From Candidatus Heimdallarchaeota archaeon (lineage in GTDB: Archaea > Asgardarchaeota > Heimdallarchaeia > Hodarchaeales > Hodarchaeaceae): 64,000 bases of DNA. The stretch covers positions 3,009,428 to 3,073,427 of the forward strand of contig CP070695.1 of assembly GCA_020353515.1 (NCBI GenBank), read 5' to 3'. The position numbers and the translations under genes were made by a program. Shown here piece by piece: positions 1,052-45,180 of this stretch (position 1 is its first letter; the number at the start of each line of letters is the position of its first letter). The notes beneath the pieces are model-generated. The model ran no database searches. It had not been told where the DNA came from and worked only from the letters and a program-made list of their open reading frames with translations.

Positions 1052-4000
1052 TTGAAATATGCTTTTAAATATACCTTACAAGTCCTCAGTCGGCGTAAAC
1101 GTAATTTTTGCCTTACCGCCTTTGTAATTGCACTTGGGATATCTTTAGTTGTCCAGACACAGATTCTGGGAACAACAGTTGAAAGAAACTATAAAGAGAT
1201 TCTTATCGAATCATTTGGAAACACTGACATACTCATTTTTTCCGTCAATGAGATTTATTTCTCTCAAAATGTTTCAGACATTTTGATACAGGAATTTAGT
1301 TCAGTCTTTGAAGGCATTCTCCCCCAGATTGCCTATCCAACGACTGCTTATTATCCAGAGAAAGGACAGTTTGAACAGGGAGTGAGAGTTGAGACGATTG
1401 GATCAGAATTCGACGGAAGCTTTTGGGGATACATTTATTCAAACTCAACTGGAGAAAAACTAGATATTGCTTCATTACAAGAAGACGAGATCGTCATCTC
1501 TCCTGAGTTGGCTGATTCGTTAGATGCTAGAATTGGAGCCTCCATTACAATATCATTAAGAGACGAGAGGGGAAATCCCATTCTTCATAATGTTACAATC
1601 AAAAATATCTATAGTTATAGAGAATACGGAAGAACAGGGGATCCAAATGATTTTCGACGAATTTTGATGGGCGAACAAGCCGTTCAAACCCTCATTCCAA
1701 GCAGTATCGATCAGCCAATAACACAAATCTCAGTGGGAATAGAAGATCACCAAGAAAACTCTTTCCTTGGACGAGAACGGAGTGATGAGGCAAAAAGACA
1801 GATTGAGACAATTTTAGATAAGAATTTTCAAGATAGTATGCTTATAACTGCTACCATAAGAGAGGATAATAGAGAAGGGCTGGAAGCGGGAATTTCCAGC
1901 TTGGCTGGTACATTTCAGATGTTTGGTGTTGTTGTAGTTATTGCAGGTTTATTATTGATCACCAACATTCAATTAATGAACATGGAAGAACGTGAGCAAC
2001 AAATCGGAATGCTTCGGGCAATTGGTGCTAAAAAACGAGATATTTTTGTATCGTATTCTATAGAAACTATACTAACAGGAATATTAGGAGGGATCTTCGG
2101 TCTAATCTTAGGAATAGTGGTTGGTATTTGGTTAAATGATCTAAGTAGGGGGATGCTTTCAGCAATGGGAAATCCTGAAGTAACAAGGTCTATCTTTGAC
2201 TTAGTAATAGAGCCAAATGCGCTTTTATTGTCCTTTACTTGTGCAATTGGCCTTTCGTTTGTGACAGGAATGGTTCCTGCATTACGAGCGCAAGGAATCT
2301 CTATAATTGATATCGTCCATGGGACAAAATCAAAAGACTTAATTTCCTCCTTTAATGGGAAAAAACCATTATGGCCTCTCGTTATTGGGGGAGTTATCTT
2401 AATTTTCGGCCTTCTATCCCTAATTGACTTGATTCAACAAGGATACCCATTTTATGCACCAGAAGGCTTCCACAACATCGAGGAGGAAGCAGCTGCAAAC
2501 TTCCAGGCTTTATTCTATGTTTGCTTGGGAATTCTTTTCGCTAGTTTCAGGTTAAGACGTTACAGACGGTTGGGTTTGACCGTTAGTGGCCTTCTGTTAA
2601 TTGTTCTTACTGTATGGGGTTTTCATGTGGCTGTAGGATGGGCAGACGAAGGTGGCAATGCGAATAGTATTGCTATGAATGGATTATTAGCTGCAGTGAT
2701 AGGGGCAACTACAATAGTAGGAGCTAATCTTGAAGCATTAACTGCAGGATTAAGAAAATTGTTTTCAATATTCAGTAAAACTAGAGCAACAGGACTTGTG
2801 GCTACTCGTTATATCAACTCAAGAAAATCTCGTGCTGTTCTGACTTTCGCTACTTTTGCGGTTATTCTTTCGTTGAATTTCTTTGTGGGCTCATATGCCG
2901 CAACCCAAGTAGGTGGTTCAAGTCACACATGGGAATATTATATGTCAGGAGTCTCGTTAGTTGTTGAATCTCAAACCCCATTTAATCTCTCCTCCCTTAA
3001 CTATCCTAATATTCTTCAGAATCAGTTTGAGGAAATAATACAGATATTTCCCTTGGGGGTAGGAGGAGTGCTTCCTTTTAGAGGCGCTAGTACTGATATA
3101 TCTCCCGAGGAAGATATTTTCTACTCCAAACTTATAGCAATCGATTTTCCCAGTTACTCAACTGAGGATGGAGAAGTTTTGTATCCCTTCGTATTTAATA
3201 GCCTTCTTCCTCACTATACTCAAATGTCGATGATGGATCAATTAGAAAATCCAGATGAAGCACGAGAAGAAGCAAAATCATTTTGGAAAGCTTTCTTAGC
3301 AGGTCAAAGAATCCATCGAACAACACTTGAACCTGTGGATCCTGATGATCCGTTTGGATTACCAATGTTCATCAGTGAACGACTTTATTTTCTAGAAGTA
3401 GGGGAAATCATAAGTTTTCCGACAATGAATGGCAGCCTAGTCGAAATGATCTACGCTGGCAGATTGAGTTATTTCCCGTCCTGTAATCTCCGTATCAATG
3501 AATTTGCCTCTGGAATTATCTTGAGCAGCGAAATCGCATCACAACTTAATATTATGAGTTATGGAATCAAGGAGTTTCTCATAGAAACCATACATGGGTA
3601 TGATTACGAAAAGAACGAGGAGCTTACTAGTAAAATCGAGGAATTTTCAAATAAAAAAGGGGAAGAATCTCTGTTGAGCTTGAGTGGAGGCACTTTCTAT
3701 GGAATTACTACTCATCATCTCTGGGATGTTGAGTACCATTTGAACGCTACAAATGCAAGCGCCCTCAATTTTCTGCAGATATTTATATCTACTGGGTTAA
3801 TTATCGGAGTCATTGGACTTCTCGTTGTATCCCATCGTTCTGTTAAGGAGAGGAAACGAGAGATCGGGATGTTAAGATCAGTCGGTTTTTCAAAGAAAGC
3901 GGTTTCATTAGCGATTCTCTTGGAATTATTGTTTTTAGGAGCCCTAGGCTTTATTACAGGGTTTTTAGTAGGAAATTATCTCGCATGGGTTTTTGCGGAT

Positions 4001-35246: not shown

Positions 35247-36347
35247 CTAAAGCTCTTTTTCTCTTAAACGATTAATAGTGATCTGCAAAGCCTCATTTAA
35301 GGTGGAAAGAAATAAAAAACCTTTTGATGTGATTGAAAAGTTTCTATATCGGGCATCTTGAAGAACTTGAGCAGATACAAATGCCTCGATGTACTGTAAG
35401 TCAACTAGCTTTTTTATTTCTCTGGTAAGGGTAGGAGTTGGGATATTTAAACTTTGAGCTAATTTAGTTGGGTTGGTTTCACTTGGATCCTGATAAGCAA
35501 TCTCTATAAGTGTTAAAACTGTTCTTCCTTTCATCTCTGATCTGAGATCATTTTGAAAAGTAGTAGGAAAATACTCTACCATGGATGGCTGACTTACTGG
35601 TTCCAATTTTGGAATATCTCTTAATTCAGTAAGATAAGCATCTCGAATATTGTCGAGACCAATGACTACTTTATGACGAATTTCTTTTAGAAATTCAGCT
35701 TCACTCGACTGTACCAATTCAATAAAGGTTTTCTGTCCTTTGAACCTTGGACTAAGACGCAAATATATGAAACCAACCCCTGAGAGAAGAAAGATAGAAC
35801 CAAAAAGACTAAATAGTAAAACAAGAAGATTATCAGGTTCTGTATCTGTGTTTCCGTTAATGGTTGTGGTAGTAGAAGATTCCTCTTCCTGCTCTTCCCG
35901 ATTATCAATAGTAAAAGGACCATCGGAAATATCTTCTTTTGTCTCCCAATCCTTACTCCCTGCAATAACCTTAACTAAATTATTAACGCCAAAAGTTTTA
36001 TAAAGGGGAGTGTTCCACTCGTAAGTCTCTTCTAGGATGGAAAAAGCCAATTGAATCCAATTTTCCCCACCATCATGGGAATAAAAGACAGAATACCAAG
36101 GGTTATCTCCTAAGTACTGAATATCAAGGGTCCATTGAATTATCACAGTTCCGTTAAGAGTTTCCCCTCCATTGGGAAATAAAACTGTAAGCCCATTATT
36201 TTGACTAGAATCATCGTTTCCAAGAGGATAGTGGAATTGTTCACTCGAAAATGAACCAACATTAATTATTGGACAAATAGGTATAAAAAAAATGGTAATA
36301 AGGCTTCCTAGTATTAATAGATTAATTTTTCCCATGATGAATTCCAT
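35247..36347 (-). CDS. Single-pass membrane protein: extracellular Ig-like domain plus cytoplasmic winged-helix domain
   Basis: Signal peptide; TV.FPNGGE...I.W...YS.DGGENW...Y.WNT domain; acidic/Thr linker; TM LLVLLFSLFGSIFLLSGVGFIYL followed by basic residues; C-terminal PTKLAQSLNIPTPTLTREIKKLVDLQYIE...DARYR...ITSKG. Confidence 0.75.
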   Translation of the reverse strand: MEFIMGKINLLILGSLITIFFIPICPIINVGSFSSEQFHYPLGNDDSSQNNGLTVLFPNGGETLNGTVIIQWTLDIQYLGDNPWYSVFYSHDGGENWIQLAFSILEETYEWNTPLYKTFGVNNLVKVIAGSKDWETKEDISDGPFTIDNREEQEEESSTTTTINGNTDTEPDNLLVLLFSLFGSIFLLSGVGFIYLRLSPRFKGQKTFIELVQSSEAEFLKEIRHKVVIGLDNIRDAYLTELRDIPKLEPVSQPSMVEYFPTTFQNDLRSEMKGRTVLTLIEIAYQDPSETNPTKLAQSLNIPTPTLTREIKKLVDLQYIEAFVSAQVLQDARYRNFSITSKGFLFLSTLNEALQITINRLREKEL

Positions 36348-38943: not shown

Positions 38944-41697
38944 CTAGATTTTTTTCATCTTTTTCTGTTTCTCAAATAATTTCTGAGTTAAAAAATCCCC
39001 AACTTTTTCCATTTTATCATCGATTGTAACCAGTTGTGTTTCGGAATGCTCTTTTTCTGGTTTCGGAACGCTGAATATAGACAGTATTCCAACAATCTGA
39101 TTTTCTTGATTCATAACTGGAAGTATTGACTCTCCAGTGACTGAAAAGACTCCCCAGGCTTCTTTCAGAGTTTGATTTAACGTGAATGTATAGTGTATGG
39201 GAAAAGCTACTTCATAGACTCGGATATTATCTAATTTATTTATCTTTTGAGCCCTATTGAAGGGAATTATTCCTGTAGGAACACCTGTTTCTGTTACTAT
39301 CCATGTCTTTTTTTGTGCATTAGGACTCACTAAATCAGTTGTAAATTGATCCCATTCAACAACATCGAAGTTATCCTGAATATAATCATTGATAGAATTA
39401 TCAGCGTTCCTTATTTCAGATAAATCTTTTGAAATTTTATCAAAATCGAACGAATATTCTATTGGTGTCTTTATCAATTTAATTGCTTCACTAGTTACTA
39501 ATATAGAGGAAAAAGATTTTCCTATGGTACCATTAGCGTAAAAATCTGATTCTTTCTCTTCATAGATACGGTGATTGTGCCCTACAACAATTTTTAGATT
39601 CTTCAGTCTCTTTAGAGATCTGAATTTGGAAATATGTTGATCCATTGGTGGTCTGAAATCTTTCCAGAAACCAAGGTCACCGTGTTCGATCCAGATGTTT
39701 TCGTCGGTATAGTGATTACCAAGAAAATGAATATCTAATTCTCGTTTTAATTTATCTCGGAATTTGTCATAGAAGCTTTCAGGGTCATGGTTACCAGCAA
39801 TTATATGGATTCTTTGGTTTCCTAGTGAATTTTGGATTTGTGATAATTCATTGAGAAGAGAGACTCCTTCTTTGTCTGTTTCTTCTAGCTCGTTTACTCT
39901 ATCAATGTTTAGAACATCACCAGCGATAATAATGGACCTAACTTGATTTTTAATACCTATTTTCTTTATTTCTACAAGACATTTTTTAGCAAGTTTATTA
40001 TTGAGTCCCCAATGGAGATCAGAAAAAACGAGGAGAGGATATGCAATCGGTTCGTGTCTTTCTTCCGATTCTTCTGGTTCCAGATTTTCGAGAATATTAC
40101 CATAAACTTCTTTCATGGTGCTTCTTAAGTCATTATTCATCAATTCTAAAGCATCAATGGGCAATTCATTAGTTAGTTTGTATTTTAATTGAGATAAAAT
40201 AGTATATCCTTGGATAAGCTTATTACTTTGCTCCTCTGTTATAATGTTCCTTTCCATGGCTACTTTAAAGCGGTCGATTGTGGAAGAAGTAAATGTTGTT
40301 TCTGTAAGAACCGCAAAAATAGTACCAATATCTTGTAAAGCAGTTAACGCAGAAAATTTCTTAAATATCGAATCCCATGTATAGGGAGCACAAACTCTTA
40401 AGTATTCTCCTAATTTATCCGTTTCATTATCAAAAAAATCAGTTACTCGTAATAAAATTGGAATCAGTTCATGAAACGATTTTTTGGCGGCTTGAGTAAT
40501 TGATCTTCTCAAATAATCCCCCTTTCCGATCGGTTTTTCATAAATGGGAATCATATCAATGATCGATTTATAGATAGACCAGCAATACTTACTTATTCCA
40601 TCCTTCCGCTCTTCAGGAGACAACGGAGTTTTTCGAAGTTGTTCTATAGACCTTAACATTTTATCGAGTTCGATTCTCTGATTTTTCTCTAAATAACTTT
40701 CATCACCTTTCAGAAATGCTCGCAAAATATTCGATATAGAATTCTCATGAAAATTAAGATTTTTTAAATTCTCCATCTTACATAATTCAAGGTTGGGAAC
40801 ATATCTCAAAACATTGTCCAGAGTTTCACCTACTTGTAAAAATTGTTTGTTATTTCCTTCGTGAATCAGAAGCATGTCCAAATCAGAGTTCTTAGAATAC
40901 TCACCCCTTGCATACCCTCCACAGATACCAATTATGAAGTTACTTGGAATCCCTACCTTTAGATGGTTATCTGGGTTAACTTGGAGGAGACGATTGAACT
41001 CTTGATTTTTTTCTGCTAACAACACAGCACTTTCAAATAGAAGCATTAAGCGTGAAAAGAGATTGGATGATGTTCTTTCACACCAAATTGATCCCATATA
41101 AGTACTTATTTGCTTCATATTCCAGTTAAGTTTAGCTGTTTCTTTTAAATTCCGATAAGAGAGAAATTGCTCCAACTTTGGAGGACGAGAATGGGGAGTA
41201 GAAGAATAGATATATTCAAAAAGGAGATTGGTTGAGCTGAGAAAATCAGGAAGAACGGTAACTGCCTCATTCATAGGTCCCTTTATTATGATGAGATCGT
41301 AAATGTTTACTGAATTGTTATTCCTTTTTAATAACAAGATACTATCAATAAGCTTGATCTCACCAAGAGTATTGAAAAGCTCCCAATAACCCGATCTAAT
41401 CATTTTATGGTTAATTATATTCTCAAAAAGGTCAATGGAAGATTTTATCACATTGCTTTTCGAAAAACGGTCTTTTGATAGTTTTTTTGGATCTATCCAG
41501 TCATCATCTAAGAAGAATATCCCTTTTTTAAACAGACGATCTTCTGGAAGATGAAAAACTTCCCCTTCCTGTGTTAGTAGAAGACTAATGGCTGGAGTTG
41601 AGATATATTTAAGATCTTCTAGGGATAATATCTTCTGTAAAAATTTTTGATCATCTAAATAAAACTGTAAAGTTTTTATTGCACTAGGAAAATCCAT
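38944..41697 (-). CDS. Multidomain protein: GlnD/GlnE-type nucleotidyltransferase + helical domain + calcineurin-like metallophosphoesterase + CBS-like domains
   Basis: NTase GGYARGEYSKNSDLDMLLIH (40920-40861); phosphoesterase motifs SDLH, GD, GNHD, HGD, GHNH; C-terminal QTLKEAW..F......LPVMNQENQIVGILS (CBS). Start set at ATG 41697, 2 nt after the upstream stop (track start 41742). Confidence 0.8.
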   Translation of the reverse strand: MDFPSAIKTLQFYLDDQKFLQKILSLEDLKYISTPAISLLLTQEGEVFHLPEDRLFKKGIFFLDDDWIDPKKLSKDRFSKSNVIKSSIDLFENIINHKMIRSGYWELFNTLGEIKLIDSILLLKRNNNSVNIYDLIIIKGPMNEAVTVLPDFLSSTNLLFEYIYSSTPHSRPPKLEQFLSYRNLKETAKLNWNMKQISTYMGSIWCERTSSNLFSRLMLLFESAVLLAEKNQEFNRLLQVNPDNHLKVGIPSNFIIGICGGYARGEYSKNSDLDMLLIHEGNNKQFLQVGETLDNVLRYVPNLELCKMENLKNLNFHENSISNILRAFLKGDESYLEKNQRIELDKMLRSIEQLRKTPLSPEERKDGISKYCWSIYKSIIDMIPIYEKPIGKGDYLRRSITQAAKKSFHELIPILLRVTDFFDNETDKLGEYLRVCAPYTWDSIFKKFSALTALQDIGTIFAVLTETTFTSSTIDRFKVAMERNIITEEQSNKLIQGYTILSQLKYKLTNELPIDALELMNNDLRSTMKEVYGNILENLEPEESEERHEPIAYPLLVFSDLHWGLNNKLAKKCLVEIKKIGIKNQVRSIIIAGDVLNIDRVNELEETDKEGVSLLNELSQIQNSLGNQRIHIIAGNHDPESFYDKFRDKLKRELDIHFLGNHYTDENIWIEHGDLGFWKDFRPPMDQHISKFRSLKRLKNLKIVVGHNHRIYEEKESDFYANGTIGKSFSSILVTSEAIKLIKTPIEYSFDFDKISKDLSEIRNADNSINDYIQDNFDVVEWDQFTTDLVSPNAQKKTWIVTETGVPTGIIPFNRAQKINKLDNIRVYEVAFPIHYTFTLNQTLKEAWGVFSVTGESILPVMNQENQIVGILSIFSVPKPEKEHSETQLVTIDDKMEKVGDFLTQKLFEKQKKMKKI

Positions 41698-41699
41698 TT

Positions 41700-43670
41700 T
41701 CAATCTTCCATTAATTGTTTCAAGCCCAGTGTTGTGATCCAATCAGGCCTCCCTAATTGCATAGAATCTTCAGGTGGGATAAAATTGAGGTCTTTGAGAG
41801 TCTCGAGAGCTTCCATTCGTATAAACGAGGATTCCTCTGGATCAATGAATATCTTAAATACTGGCCTAGTGATACTTGATGTCTCGTGCTTTGCCAAGGC
41901 TTCTAACGAAGCCTGTCTTAGAAGTTCATTAGAAGACCGTTCTATTACTGAATTTAGAAGAAAGTCAGTTACTTCTGAATTGGGAAATGTTCCTAGATTT
42001 CTTAGGGCTATCGCTCTAATTATAATAGAGAGGTTTTCATCCTTGGCAATAGCAATCAATATTTCTTCATTGATCCCATGTCGCGCGAGGAAATCCACAA
42101 TGGACCTTTGAACAGGGATGGGAGATTCTTTAATTGCCTCTAGAGTATTAAACGATTGATGTAAATTACTTGAAAACCAAGAAAGAGAGTCAAGAGCTCT
42201 TCCTCTAAGGAATGGGTCATCCATTTTATTTTCAGCAATGGTCTTGAGGAAAGGTACGAGATTAAAGCCGACTCTACTGATGAGAATTCTTAGAGCAAGT
42301 TCACGGAGCTGAAAAGGTTGTGTTGAATCTTCTAAAATGTTAAAGTATTTGGTAGTGATATGATTGGTAGATAGAACAGATTTAATTGCTGATAAACTTG
42401 CATCAGGAAACTCATCAAATATTTTTCTCCGTAGAAGTTGTGCAGATTCTTTTAATTTGTTCTCGGGAATTCCTTGACCAGAAACATGAATAGAGGCTCG
42501 AGAATTATGAGGGTGTACTTCAAAAGAGATTTCTGGAGATTTCTTAGCAAACTCCTCTACTTGATAAGTTAAATGAAATTCCTCTGCGCCCTCAATTTCG
42601 AACCCCACCTTGGAAGAAATGTGGTGTTGTAAATAATTCAGACAAAGCCACTTAAGAGATGCTAACTCATAAGGATTTTCGAGAATTTCAGTTATTAACT
42701 GATTAATTTTCTCCTCTTTCAACTTAAGTGGTAAATTTCTAATAATTTTACTTCTCTCTTCAAGTGGAACCTTTCTATTAAACAATAACTTCCATTCTTC
42801 ATGCCTTCTATAACTGGAAACACTTCCAAATAACAACTCTTCTTCATTTTTCGCGGTTTTTATACCAGGATGATTTTTTATTGTTTCAATAAGCTTTACA
42901 ATGTCTTCCAGTTCAGTTTCTCCCTCGAATCCTTTCTCAATGAGCTCCTGTTTTGATAACATTTCCGTGGAGTCATCAATAATCTTCAGGAGGGAGTAAA
43001 TATTATCAATGATGGGATTGACGGAAAATTTTTGCTTAACTCTGAAGAATCTGAAGGTGCATCTAGGAAATCCCTCTGCGATCGTTTCTTCACGCTCAAA
43101 CCTTACCCACTTGGCCACATTTTTAGCAATAATTCCATCATATTCACACATAATTGACCCAAGATCTTCACGGCCGAATTCCTTGAAGATTTCATGATAA
43201 AGGCAACGATTGATATCAAAAGCAAACTCCTCCTCGGTAGCTGAAATCTCTTGAAGTTTGAAGAATTCATTATCATAGGTTTTTTGATTACTTTTTCTAG
43301 TATTTTCGACAAAAGTTGACCAAGGATTTTTGGAAGAGGACATGAATCGTCTCTGTGGTTCTAAGACAAAATCTTCCAGCATTACCTTATAAATTGTTAA
43401 TACATGTTCTGTTAGTTGCTTTTTATCTTTTTCAGTAGATGGAAGTGATTCCTCTAGAGCTATAACAAACAAAGGATTTATTCCATGAAAAATTATTGTT
43501 TCATTTTGTTTTTCTTTTAATTTACCAAATAGTTCACTAAATCGCGTAGTAAAAGAGGAAAGGATTTTTTCGCTCTCTTCCGAATTAAAAGCGTTTTTTA
43601 TTTGATTAGATGTTAAAGTAATAATAAACTGGAATAACTGATCCATGTCAAAAGTCGCAGCCATTTTCAT
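41700..43670 (-). CDS. ATC-hydrolase/V4R-like domain + wHTH-like domain + HEAT-repeat protein
   Basis: FDINRCLYHEIFKEFG..DLGSIMCEYD...FEREETIAEGFPRCTFRF. The middle domain resembles the 43777-44169 product. C-terminal repeats LRELALRIL, LRGRALDSL, IRAIALRNL, LRQASLEAL, IRMEALETL. Confidence 0.75.
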   Translation of the reverse strand: MKMAATFDMDQLFQFIITLTSNQIKNAFNSEESEKILSSFTTRFSELFGKLKEKQNETIIFHGINPLFVIALEESLPSTEKDKKQLTEHVLTIYKVMLEDFVLEPQRRFMSSSKNPWSTFVENTRKSNQKTYDNEFFKLQEISATEEEFAFDINRCLYHEIFKEFGREDLGSIMCEYDGIIAKNVAKWVRFEREETIAEGFPRCTFRFFRVKQKFSVNPIIDNIYSLLKIIDDSTEMLSKQELIEKGFEGETELEDIVKLIETIKNHPGIKTAKNEEELLFGSVSSYRRHEEWKLLFNRKVPLEERSKIIRNLPLKLKEEKINQLITEILENPYELASLKWLCLNYLQHHISSKVGFEIEGAEEFHLTYQVEEFAKKSPEISFEVHPHNSRASIHVSGQGIPENKLKESAQLLRRKIFDEFPDASLSAIKSVLSTNHITTKYFNILEDSTQPFQLRELALRILISRVGFNLVPFLKTIAENKMDDPFLRGRALDSLSWFSSNLHQSFNTLEAIKESPIPVQRSIVDFLARHGINEEILIAIAKDENLSIIIRAIALRNLGTFPNSEVTDFLLNSVIERSSNELLRQASLEALAKHETSSITRPVFKIFIDPEESSFIRMEALETLKDLNFIPPEDSMQLGRPDWITTLGLKQLMED

Positions 43671-43710
43671 CCATTCCAGATGTCCACTGAAGCTATGTTT
43701 TTACTTGTTT

Positions 43711-43750
43711 ATAAATACATTTATATATATTAAGAGATACATTTATGTAC
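43711..43750. promoter_or_regulatory. Divergent promoter with ATACATTTAT direct repeat and TATA-like tracts
   Basis: ATACATTTAT at 43715-43724 and 43737-43746 (22-bp period), flanking TTTATATATA. Confidence 0.45.
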
Positions 43751-43776
43751 TAGTTATTGTACTCACAGGGAATAAT

Positions 43777-44169
43777 ATGAGTTCCAAAAACAGAAAAAAA
43801 AGGCTTAAAAGAACCTTAAAGCAAAGAGCAGAAGAAATTTTTCGTTTTATTAACAAAAGCAGTGAACCAATCGCTAAATCCCGATTTAAAGATATTGGTC
43901 TAAGTACAACATCAGCAGATAACTGGTTAGACTTGATAATCTATATTCAAAATCAAAATCGCCTTCGATTATTCAAAGCTGGTAGTTATACTTTCGTTGA
44001 CAAACAAGTATTTATTGACCGAATATCATCGAGTAAGTACCTCCAATTATGTTGGAATAACTTTCTAAATCCAGAGGAACCTTATGAAAAACGCCTTGGT
44101 TACTTAAATGACTTTGGAAATGCTTATTTTTTCCTAGAAAGAGCAAAACTTGATCAAGTGGAAAAATAA
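43777..44169 (+). CDS. Small basic putative DNA-binding (wHTH-like) protein
   Basis: Start moved to ATG 43777 because the longer ORF overlaps the divergent gene and its promoter. Basic N-terminus KNRKKRLKR; helix-turn-helix-like pattern RAEEIFRFI...IAKSRFKDIGLS...ADNWLDLI, then a beta-hairpin-like segment. Confidence 0.65.
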   Translation: MSSKNRKKRLKRTLKQRAEEIFRFINKSSEPIAKSRFKDIGLSTTSADNWLDLIIYIQNQNRLRLFKAGSYTFVDKQVFIDRISSSKYLQLCWNNFLNPEEPYEKRLGYLNDFGNAYFFLERAKLDQVEK

Positions 44170-44217: not shown

Positions 44218-44920
44218 TCAATTAAATACGATACCATACTGATTTTCATAAATGGTGTTGCGTCTTATTGTAGTTTTATTAGATGAATCTCCAATCCAAA
44301 TTCCAGCTTCTACACTATTAGTTATAGTATTATTAGTAAGAGTAGCTGGGCCAGGGCAAGCTTCAATTCGAATTCCATTTAGATTAGTATTTTCTACTTT
44401 GTTATCTGAAATTATTAAGTTTCCTGAAAAATATGCCCCTATTCCTAGAATATCAATATTCTCCACAATATTTTCATCGACAATCCCATTGATGACATTA
44501 TAGAAGAGTATTCCTCCCCAAGTCTCCGTTAGACCATTGAGATAGTTATCTCTAATGATGAAATAAACATTAGTATCATGGATCACAATTAAATCTCCAT
44601 AAGAATCAGTAATATTGTATCCTTCTATGATAAATGTATTACTAGAAGTCCCATCACCAGGCCAGTCTTCCATTACGGCTATCTCCCTAAAATGATCAAT
44701 TCCATAGATAATTATACGTTCATGGGTTTCATATTGCACGAAACCAAGACTCGAATGGATCGTTTTTGATGCTTTTCTCGGACAAAAGGGTCGTATATTC
44801 AGATTGTTTGACTTCTTAAAGGATTCCCTCACCGTATTCACACATACAATGCAATTAAAAGAAACGATCAAGGGGAAAAACAGTATTAAGAGTAAAAAGG
44901 TGGATCTAATCTGTACCTGA
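44218..44920 (-). pseudogene. Truncated right-handed beta-helix (NosD/CASH) surface protein
   Basis: H..I.I.G...F......W.GDGT..N.FIIEGYNI followed by GI.....N.I..N repeats. It stops after about 5 repeats with no anchor. The in-frame signal-like segment upstream of 44871 (STFLLLILFFP) lacks a canonical start. Confidence 0.6.
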
Positions 44921-45180
44921 TAAGAGATAATTATTCAACCTTAATATCCTTTCTTCGGTTAAGATTCCTGAAACATTATTAAAATATTGGGAGAATGAAA
45001 GTATACAATCTTCAGTCATAATGATAGCTATACCGTCATTTTCTTAAATGAGTCTGAAATACTTCTTGGACGAAACCTAACTGCTTGAAACAAGATTACA
45101 GAGTTTAAGAGATTTTTAAATTCAATAATCTTCCATCAACACCCTCTCAAAGCTGATTAGCTTTTTATCATTGTAGGTAC

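Follow-up and report, generated by a model that had tools for sequence, protein, structure and literature searches.

A Hodarchaeales locus with a predicted nucleotidyltransferase-phosphoesterase, a HEAT-repeat partner and a divergent putative repressor: a possible reversible nucleotidylation switch carried by an Asgard-wide regulatory cassette

The genome of Candidatus Heimdallarchaeota archaeon (Hodarchaeales; assembly GCA_020353515.1; 4.94 Mb in a single contig) carries three linked genes whose products include a predicted nucleotidyltransferase (NTase) fused to a predicted phosphoesterase. We analyzed this locus within a stretch of 64,000 nucleotides (contig CP070695.1, positions 3,009,428 to 3,073,427), here called the window, in whose coordinates positions are given. 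Three open reading frames were confirmed. Gene P0001 (38944..41697, minus strand) encodes a 917-residue enzyme comprising an N-domain, an NTase domain of predicted GlnE/GlnD fold, a calcineurin-like phosphoesterase, a CBS pair and a C-terminal helix. P0002 (41700..43670, minus strand) encodes a 656-residue partner with a helical domain, a V4R-like domain, a degenerate copy of the small protein, an alpha/beta insertion and HEAT repeats. P0003 (43777..44169, plus strand) encodes a 130-residue basic, putative winged-helix repressor that ends in a helical hairpin and belongs to an Asgard-wide family. The stop codon of the HEAT gene (41700-41702) and the ATG of the enzyme gene (41695-41697) leave a gap of 2 nt, in keeping with the operon coupling first described, and the third gene, placed across about 105 bp in that description, diverges across a measured 106 bp (43671-43776). 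We prefer the 917-residue start over an upstream TTG because most homologues start at the same Met. The host genome holds no full paralogue of any of the three genes, and their named homologues come nearly all from Hodarchaeales.

The trio is conserved, as a gene-neighborhood comparison across Asgard genomes showed. It occurs in identical order in 14 further loci whose contigs span all three genes, and it is kept in a 15th (L101), with a EutA fusion gene and an amidohydrolase gene inserted; the genomes that bear it are kin, and these counts do not represent independent events. Synteny holds wherever contigs reach, with the exception of one distant genome that lacks the small gene. Since the order is the same across loci while the flanking genes differ, the linkage is not a product of chance. 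The enzyme NTase is rare, with 6 matches among 1.84 billion representatives, and the 400 Asgard genomes examined include 13 with the enzyme and 13 with the HEAT partner, and the two sets coincide exactly: 12 in the home genus, 12 of whose 22 genomes carry the trio, and 1 in another family. In the latter, the system is split into three genes that are still adjacent (HEAT only, NTase, and phosphoesterase-CBS); no small gene was found in this genome, which is 94% complete, and the split form also has no winged helix-turn-helix (wHTH)-like copy. The system is single copy, and slowly evolving, with 55-84% identity and 35-40% in distant forms. Pairwise identities of the HEAT and NTase proteins are correlated (Spearman 0.80), and those of the small protein correlate weakly with either (0.26). 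The enzyme and its HEAT partner are thus strictly coupled and co-evolving.

The N-terminal alpha/beta domain of the enzyme (41131..41697, minus strand; residues 1-189) is its least conserved part (mean identity 53%). Its secondary structure hinted at a degenerate CBS pair, an idea to which profile comparisons lent no support. The region that follows (40087..41130, minus strand; residues ~190-537) matches NTP_transf_2 above the Pfam cut-off, a match found in all family members, and is predicted to join the catalytic domain to a helical substrate-binding domain. The Pol-beta motif hG[GS]x9-13 DxD is present in all 35 homologues as G260, G261 and D272-L-D274; R264, E266, S271 and E280 are likewise invariant, and so, within the helical domain, are K446, Q455-D456 and R476. 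The modeled region aligns with both GlnE domains (1v4a, Z 10.9, 255 residues aligned, root-mean-square deviation [rmsd] 4.9; the second Escherichia coli domain, 3k7d, Z 10.4) over 255-265 residues that span catalytic and helical subdomains, which bears out the GlnD/GlnE-type fold proposed earlier. Family models gave fainter signals: of the 35 members, DUF294_C matched 26 below its cut-off, the best at E 7e-4, DUF294 weakly matched just 4 and Adenyl_cycl_N weakly matched 1 (E 0.058). Feature-based Atlas leads pointed to DUF294, GlnD and SidM_N clusters (0.82-0.89, leads only). By sequence motifs and modeled fold, we assign residues 190-537 to the GlnD/GlnE/DUF294 NTase clade, with a nucleotidyltransferase domain followed by a helical domain of the GlnD_UR_UTase/DUF294_C type. 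GlnD, GlnE and DrrA have been grouped in one clade (PMC3710099).

Residues 553-746 (39460..40041, minus strand) form a calcineurin-like metallophosphoesterase domain that exceeds the Pfam cut-off for Metallophos and has all five metal motifs (DxH, GD, GNH, H and GHxH). The ligands D560, H562, D594, N636, H637, H672 and H707 are invariant, and H709 is present in 31 of 32 homologues; both the writer and the eraser motifs noted previously are therefore intact across the family. The nearest fold is LpxH (Z 16.1, rmsd 3.3, 17% identity), and the MJ0936-type archaeal phosphodiesterase 1s3l also matches (Z 14.0). Behind this domain lies a CBS pair (39058..39405, minus strand; residues ~765-880), which is conserved as strongly as the catalytic domains (mean identity 68%). 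Its fold is supported by eight CBS structures (Z 9.6-10.4 over 112-117 residues; best 2ef7, Z 10.4, 117 aligned); its sequence match falls below the Pfam cut-off, and MJ0922 matches at E 0.028. The ribose-binding CBS motif is G-h-h-T/S-x-x-D/N (PMC6429129). Here CBS1 reads GxIPFNR/K-like and CBS2 GTLSIFS. Of the proposal that the pair binds adenylates and reads energy status, the fold stands, and AMP/ATP sensing is uncertain because both motifs are without the canonical final Asp/Asn.

The HEAT partner, encoded on the minus strand, opens with a helical domain (43335..43646; residues 9-112) that has a homologue at the N terminus of EutA-like fusions in Asgard genomes. The hhalign match between the two has a probability of 88%, E 3e-6 and a score of 38, against 13.7 for reversed and at most 18.4 for block-shuffled controls. 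Next comes an ATC-hydrolase/V4R-like domain (43041..43334), whose ATC_hydrolase profile scores 68.9 bits (cut-off 28.1). Its C156, E160, C175, D178 and C204 are invariant, the three cysteines being present in 36 of 36 homologues, and this set is a candidate metal or redox site. A link between the ATC_hydrolase, V4R and MetOD1 families and a three-Cys cluster have been described (PMC5847659); we use ATC hydrolase as a family name alone, thiazoline ring hydrolysis being putative. An internal copy of the small-protein family follows (42726..43016; residues ~219-315), with a profile match at E 1.4e-4 in this protein and a clear one at 6.7e-14 in the distant orthologue from L101, modeled as alpha-alpha-alpha-beta-beta. 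Since this copy is acidic (net charge -5 to -13) throughout the 34 homologues, whereas each of the 37 free small proteins is basic (+2 to +8), it probably does not bind DNA and would serve protein contacts instead. An insertion of about 80 residues (42381..42623; residues 350-430), absent from the two distant orthologues, has an alpha/beta, ferredoxin-like fold that matches the C-domain of aIF2-alpha (1yz7, Z 10.8, rmsd 1.6, 77 aligned). The HEAT repeats (41703..42365; residues 436-656; HEAT_2 above the Pfam cut-off) are the part always retained beside the enzyme. The V4R-like and HEAT calls made earlier are upheld by these profiles; in fold searches with the partner, which the HEAT repeats dominated, the V4R-like and wHTH-like parts were not listed. 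A gene in locus L129 (10194-10850) encodes a stand-alone 218-residue helical plus V4R-like protein (E 8e-52 to the N-terminal half of the partner) and points toward a small gene whose divergent neighbors are tandem EutA fusions.

The small gene has a far wider distribution. Its family is found in 101 of 400 Asgard genomes, about 86 of them with full-length matches, and the small gene occurs in about 74 genomes in which the enzyme was not found; no member was found in viral contigs. For the wHTH assignments proposed at the outset, the topology of the internal copy makes a winged-helix protein likely; no hidden Markov model match was obtained, and the Atlas leads for the small protein stayed below 0.9 (DUF977, MarR_2 and DeoR at 0.83-0.85). 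In 17 of 20 loci outside the trio, the small gene is divergent from a gene for a EutA fusion of about 690 residues, made up of the helical domain, a Cys/His ribbon and a EutA-like ATPase. This arrangement was seen among loci L112-L131, from other Asgard genomes, with tandem EutA fusions in L129 and L130. The cargo behind the shared lead domain therefore varies, being a EutA-like ATPase in most lineages and the HEAT protein with the enzyme in Hodarchaeales. Locus L101 bridges the two by combining the cargoes, the small gene being accompanied there by a V4R-EutA fusion, the amidohydrolase, a V4R-HEAT protein and the enzyme in a single operon. Within the home order, an intact enzyme is missing from the 4 genomes that carry a long EutA fusion, and the long fusion was unseen in the 12 trio genomes, a pattern that suggests cargo replacement among these incomplete genomes. 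In genome G003, whose small gene faces a long EutA fusion, a fragment of the enzyme gene from its CBS end, broken and interrupted by stop codons, was observed (L034:2970-3476). Across the order, 21 of 24 genomes have a EutA match. The host genome has a stand-alone 483-residue EutA-like gene (G000:C1:3711791-3713242, L103), and EutB was not found in it.

The small gene comes in two variants, 37% identical, that are scattered over the HEAT tree. Approximately unbiased (AU) tests reject trees in which HEAT-tree sisters are forced together in the small-gene tree or a variant is forced into a clade in the HEAT tree (p 3e-5, 1e-47 and 1e-41); the groups were picked after a first quick tree and the root is a midpoint, and we claim no direction of swapping. 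The trees thus indicate that the small gene has been exchanged between cassettes (AU p<=3e-5). These observations run counter to the idea that the trio forms one self-contained, co-evolved circuit: the small gene is present in about 74 genomes where no enzyme was found, was not found in the distant genome and has been exchanged between 37%-identical variants. A repressor that can be exchanged is ill suited to be a dedicated substrate of the enzyme, and the swapping, the co-occurrence pattern and the tree discordance make that role unlikely. A complex predicted between the small protein and residues 7-352 of the partner scored 0.08 against a mark of 0.32, which is evidence neither way. In L024 (13041-13208) and L025 (6272-6433), the enzyme gene is directly followed, on the strand of the operon, by the decayed 3' half of a small gene; the cassette is therefore bracketed by inverted copies there.

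What the cassettes also share is a candidate operator. The divergent gap carries repeats of a 14-bp palindrome, ATACA-N4-TGTAT. Candidate operator 1 (43715..43728, ATACATTTATATAT) overlaps a TATA-like element, and candidate operator 2 (43737..43750, ATACATTTATGTAC) is followed by a third copy truncated by an 11-bp loss. At window position 43757, a related strain from a sediment run has 11 extra bases that complete this third copy. At least two sites occur in 18 of 30 loci, compared with a shuffle mean of 0.6, and operator pairs occur in 17 of 30 loci compared with 8 of 3622 upstream regions. A matrix trained on EutA-type loci alone ranked the site at 43737 2nd and that at 43715 5th among the 4.9 million genome positions scored, and the two together form the top spaced pair of the genome (15.6 vs 7.1). 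The palindrome also precedes small genes with neither a EutA nor an enzyme neighbor, and it is missing at the locus that lacks the small gene. No second operator pair was found elsewhere in the host genome, where the best single sites inspected were intragenic or unpaired, a picture in keeping with autorepression that acts locally and without a wider regulon. The pattern is too degenerate for a pattern scan of all genomes, and a sigma-70 promoter scan, a method unsuited to archaea, performed at chance level. Promoter alignments converge at operator 1, which is likely the crossover point at which small genes were swapped.

How does this system relate to known ones? As in GlnD, a single chain bears a GlnD-type NTase signature with its helical domain, then a hydrolase that depends on metal, and at the C terminus domains for ligand binding; unlike GlnD, the enzyme has a calcineurin-like domain in place of HD, a CBS pair in place of two ACT domains, an extra N-domain and a HEAT partner, and it scores 18.2 bits against the GlnD NCBIfam model (cut-off 631). 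PII (PF00543), the canonical GlnD target, was not found in the host genome, which is 96% complete, and 13 of 14 control genomes were positive. GlnE, which with the DrrA/SidM AMPylase domain is among the closest known systems, provides the best structural match to residues 142-537 (Z 10.4-10.9), whereas the present enzyme is archaeal and has one nucleotidyltransferase domain rather than two in tandem and a separate hydrolase. Because the HD, ACT and tandem features fail, it is neither GlnD nor GlnE, and we class it as a variant within the GlnD/GlnE/DUF294 group. Glutamine synthetase is not favored as its target: of two genes, one has a Tyr near the adenylylation loop by eye, and both are unlinked. 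These two family genes (G000:C1:958344-960930) are convergent, tail to tail, and distant from the locus. The bacterial DUF294/DUF294_C putative NTases, often with cyclic nucleoside monophosphate (cNMP)-binding and CBS domains and biochemically uncharacterized, share the NTase, the DUF294_C-like part and the CBS pair with our enzyme, in which the CBS pair is C-terminal and a phosphoesterase is fused. In LpxH an Arg follows Gly-Asn in motif 3, whereas here motif 3 is GNHD in 32 of 32 homologues, with no such Arg and no lipid A pathway context. The AbiE and MenAT type IV toxin-antitoxin systems have a wHTH regulator, promoter inverted repeats and a linked NTase, which the locus resembles with its putative wHTH protein; they differ in that all loci here have a divergent three-gene layout rather than a co-transcribed two-gene operon and in that the enzyme has a GlnE fold and a built-in hydrolase and CBS pair, and no defense model matched. 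MsvR is a methanogen wHTH-V4R redox repressor (PMC3729527). It is like our system in its Cys-containing V4R-type domain and in the inverted-repeat autoregulation, here predicted, of an archaeal promoter, and unlike it in that the putative DNA-binding and the V4R-like parts here lie in separate divergent genes, with the sensor fused to HEAT or EutA cargo. Literature searches of incomplete coverage turned up no account of the fusion, of the cassette or of EutA fusions in Asgard archaea, in line with the initial impression that no system of this architecture had been described. The operator palindromes, the EutA link and the 80-residue alpha/beta insertion are additions to the preliminary description.

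We propose the following mechanism. The small basic protein would bind two or three of the 14-bp palindromes and repress both itself and the divergent operon, a step that the conservation of the motif makes highly probable. The first gene of the operon supplies the cassette-wide helical domain and then a three-Cys V4R-like domain, the putative sensor, which may read a metal, a redox state or a small ligand, by analogy to MsvR. The GlnE-fold domain of the enzyme would add a nucleoside monophosphate (NMP) to a protein and its phosphoesterase would remove it, with the CBS pair and the V4R-like domain of the partner setting the balance between the two. The characterized members of the clade, GlnD, GlnE and DrrA, modify proteins, by transfer of NMP to a tyrosine. 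Because of the co-occurrence pattern and the tree discordance, we favor the HEAT protein as the obligate adaptor that presents the target, or as the substrate itself, and the small repressor would not be the dedicated target. That the autoregulated cassette carries as cargo a ligand-gated writer and eraser of protein nucleotidylation, with the HEAT protein as adaptor or substrate, seems to us an evenly balanced proposition.

Several points weigh against this proposal. The NTase core is modeled with low confidence (predicted local distance difference test below 50 at residues 245-282 and 300-315), and a Z of about 11 over a largely helical region is moderate. The candidate third catalytic acid, at position 304, where the model is of low confidence, is E in 25, D in 7 and N in 3 of the 35 homologues and hence not invariant. 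Across distant orthologues, no invariant Tyr acceptor was found in the HEAT region. We know of no calcineurin-like enzyme or domain that strips NMP from a protein, and a literature search for such removal found none. Finally, the operator consensus was first chosen by eye from all loci, this one included.

Four other explanations have to be weighed against the protein nucleotidylation proposal. The enzyme might make and destroy a nucleotide messenger, such as a cyclic NMP or a dinucleoside polyphosphate, in the manner of RelA/SpoT or of a cyclase paired with a phosphodiesterase; the CBS pair would read it, with the HEAT protein as regulator or receptor. Class I adenylyl cyclases and RelA belong to the Pol-beta superfamily, and CpdA and Rv0805 are calcineurin-like cNMP phosphodiesterases. 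The best matches of the phosphoesterase (LpxH, MJ0936-type enzymes, YfcE, Rv0805 and Ap4A hydrolases) act on small nucleotide-linked substrates, the conserved non-canonical CBS motif could suit an unusual nucleotide, and there is the one weak Adenyl_cycl_N match. However, the NTase half matches GlnE, including the helical domain, as well as the DUF294_C and GlnD models, and the strict requirement for a HEAT partner suits the handling of a protein substrate. We consider a messenger cycle unlikely, though it is the main rival of our proposal.

The locus could also be a conflict or stress cassette, of a toxin-antitoxin or abortive-infection-like kind, in which an autoregulating wHTH protein controls a toxic NTase that acts on tRNA or an essential protein and is neutralized by the phosphoesterase and HEAT protein; AbiEi is a wHTH protein with promoter inverted repeats. 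The patchy presence of the trio even within its genus, the variable flanks, the swappable cargo and repressor, the decayed small-gene copies and pseudogene remnant, and the occurrence of some loci near TnsA and PIN or SAVED genes all speak for such a cassette. Its single copy, slow evolution and GlnE-like fold do not, nor do its mostly metabolic neighbors, and defense models gave a generic minimal-NTase motif match alone. This makes a conflict role improbable.

The preliminary description had regarded the wHTH proteins as plausible NMP targets, so that nucleotidylation of the small protein or of the wHTH-like copy in the partner would control transcription directly. The linkage is constant in Hodarchaeales, and the copy of the repressor fold could be a decoy or anti-repressor and the modified part. 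This reading fares poorly, and we think it quite improbable, given a repressor that is swapped between variants and lives largely without the enzyme, an acidic internal copy that probably does not bind DNA, and a distant split form in which the small gene and the wHTH-like copy are both missing. More improbable still by a shade is that the catalytic domains perform successive steps on a small molecule (NMP activation, then hydrolysis), induced via the V4R-like sensor: one genome encodes the two domains separately, the phosphoesterase matches LpxH and the L101 operon includes an amidohydrolase, but the neighborhood has no conserved transporter or pathway gene and the HEAT scaffold is always present.

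Other features were seen in and around these loci. Short-read contigs from a sediment metagenome, possibly that of the sample from which the genome came, cover most of the window piecewise, with 0-1 differences per piece. Beside the trio, 44218-44934 (minus strand) holds a fragment that resembles by eye a parallel beta-helix surface protein and has no convincing start; it is probably a pseudogene. A small-gene-like match at 45036-45119 (E 3e-4, three stops) was set aside as weak and probably due to chance. On the other side, 35247-36347 (minus strand) encodes 366 residues with an apparent extracellular domain, a membrane segment and a C-terminal MarR-like wHTH (weak Pfam matches), a possible membrane-bound one-component regulator. 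Proteins P0018 and P0041 have close homologues (57-71% identity) whose sources are labeled Thorarchaeota and Kariarchaeaceae, for which mis-binning and transfer are both conceivable. Near some cassettes and not conserved are a SAVED gene (L035:16651-17757), TnsA and PIN genes (L101:1-4227) and, near the L120 cassette (1449-3744), HEPN/minimal-NTase genes identified by eye.

To our knowledge, write-erase control of the GlnD/GlnE type is not established in archaea. The significance of the enzyme is limited by its rarity, with those six matches. Taken as a whole, the locus may represent an archaeal reversible protein nucleotidylation switch with a calcineurin-like eraser and a target-choosing HEAT adaptor, borne as interchangeable cargo by an Asgard-wide repressor-operator cassette; we put this forward tentatively, as somewhat less than an even prospect. 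If true, the switch sits in the order considered nearest to eukaryotes, and the pairing of such an enzyme with a HEAT protein in Hodarchaeales would recall, by analogy alone, the scaffold-directed modification of eukaryotes. What appears to be new in the comparison of sequences is that the cassette types have their regulator, operator and lead domain in common and that this regulator can be swapped. The cassette ties orphan EutA-like ATPases to the enzyme, and its repressor and operator offer a directly testable protein-DNA pair. Whatever the chemistry of the enzyme, the repressor family and its 14-bp operator mark a regulatory cassette present in roughly one Asgard genome in five.

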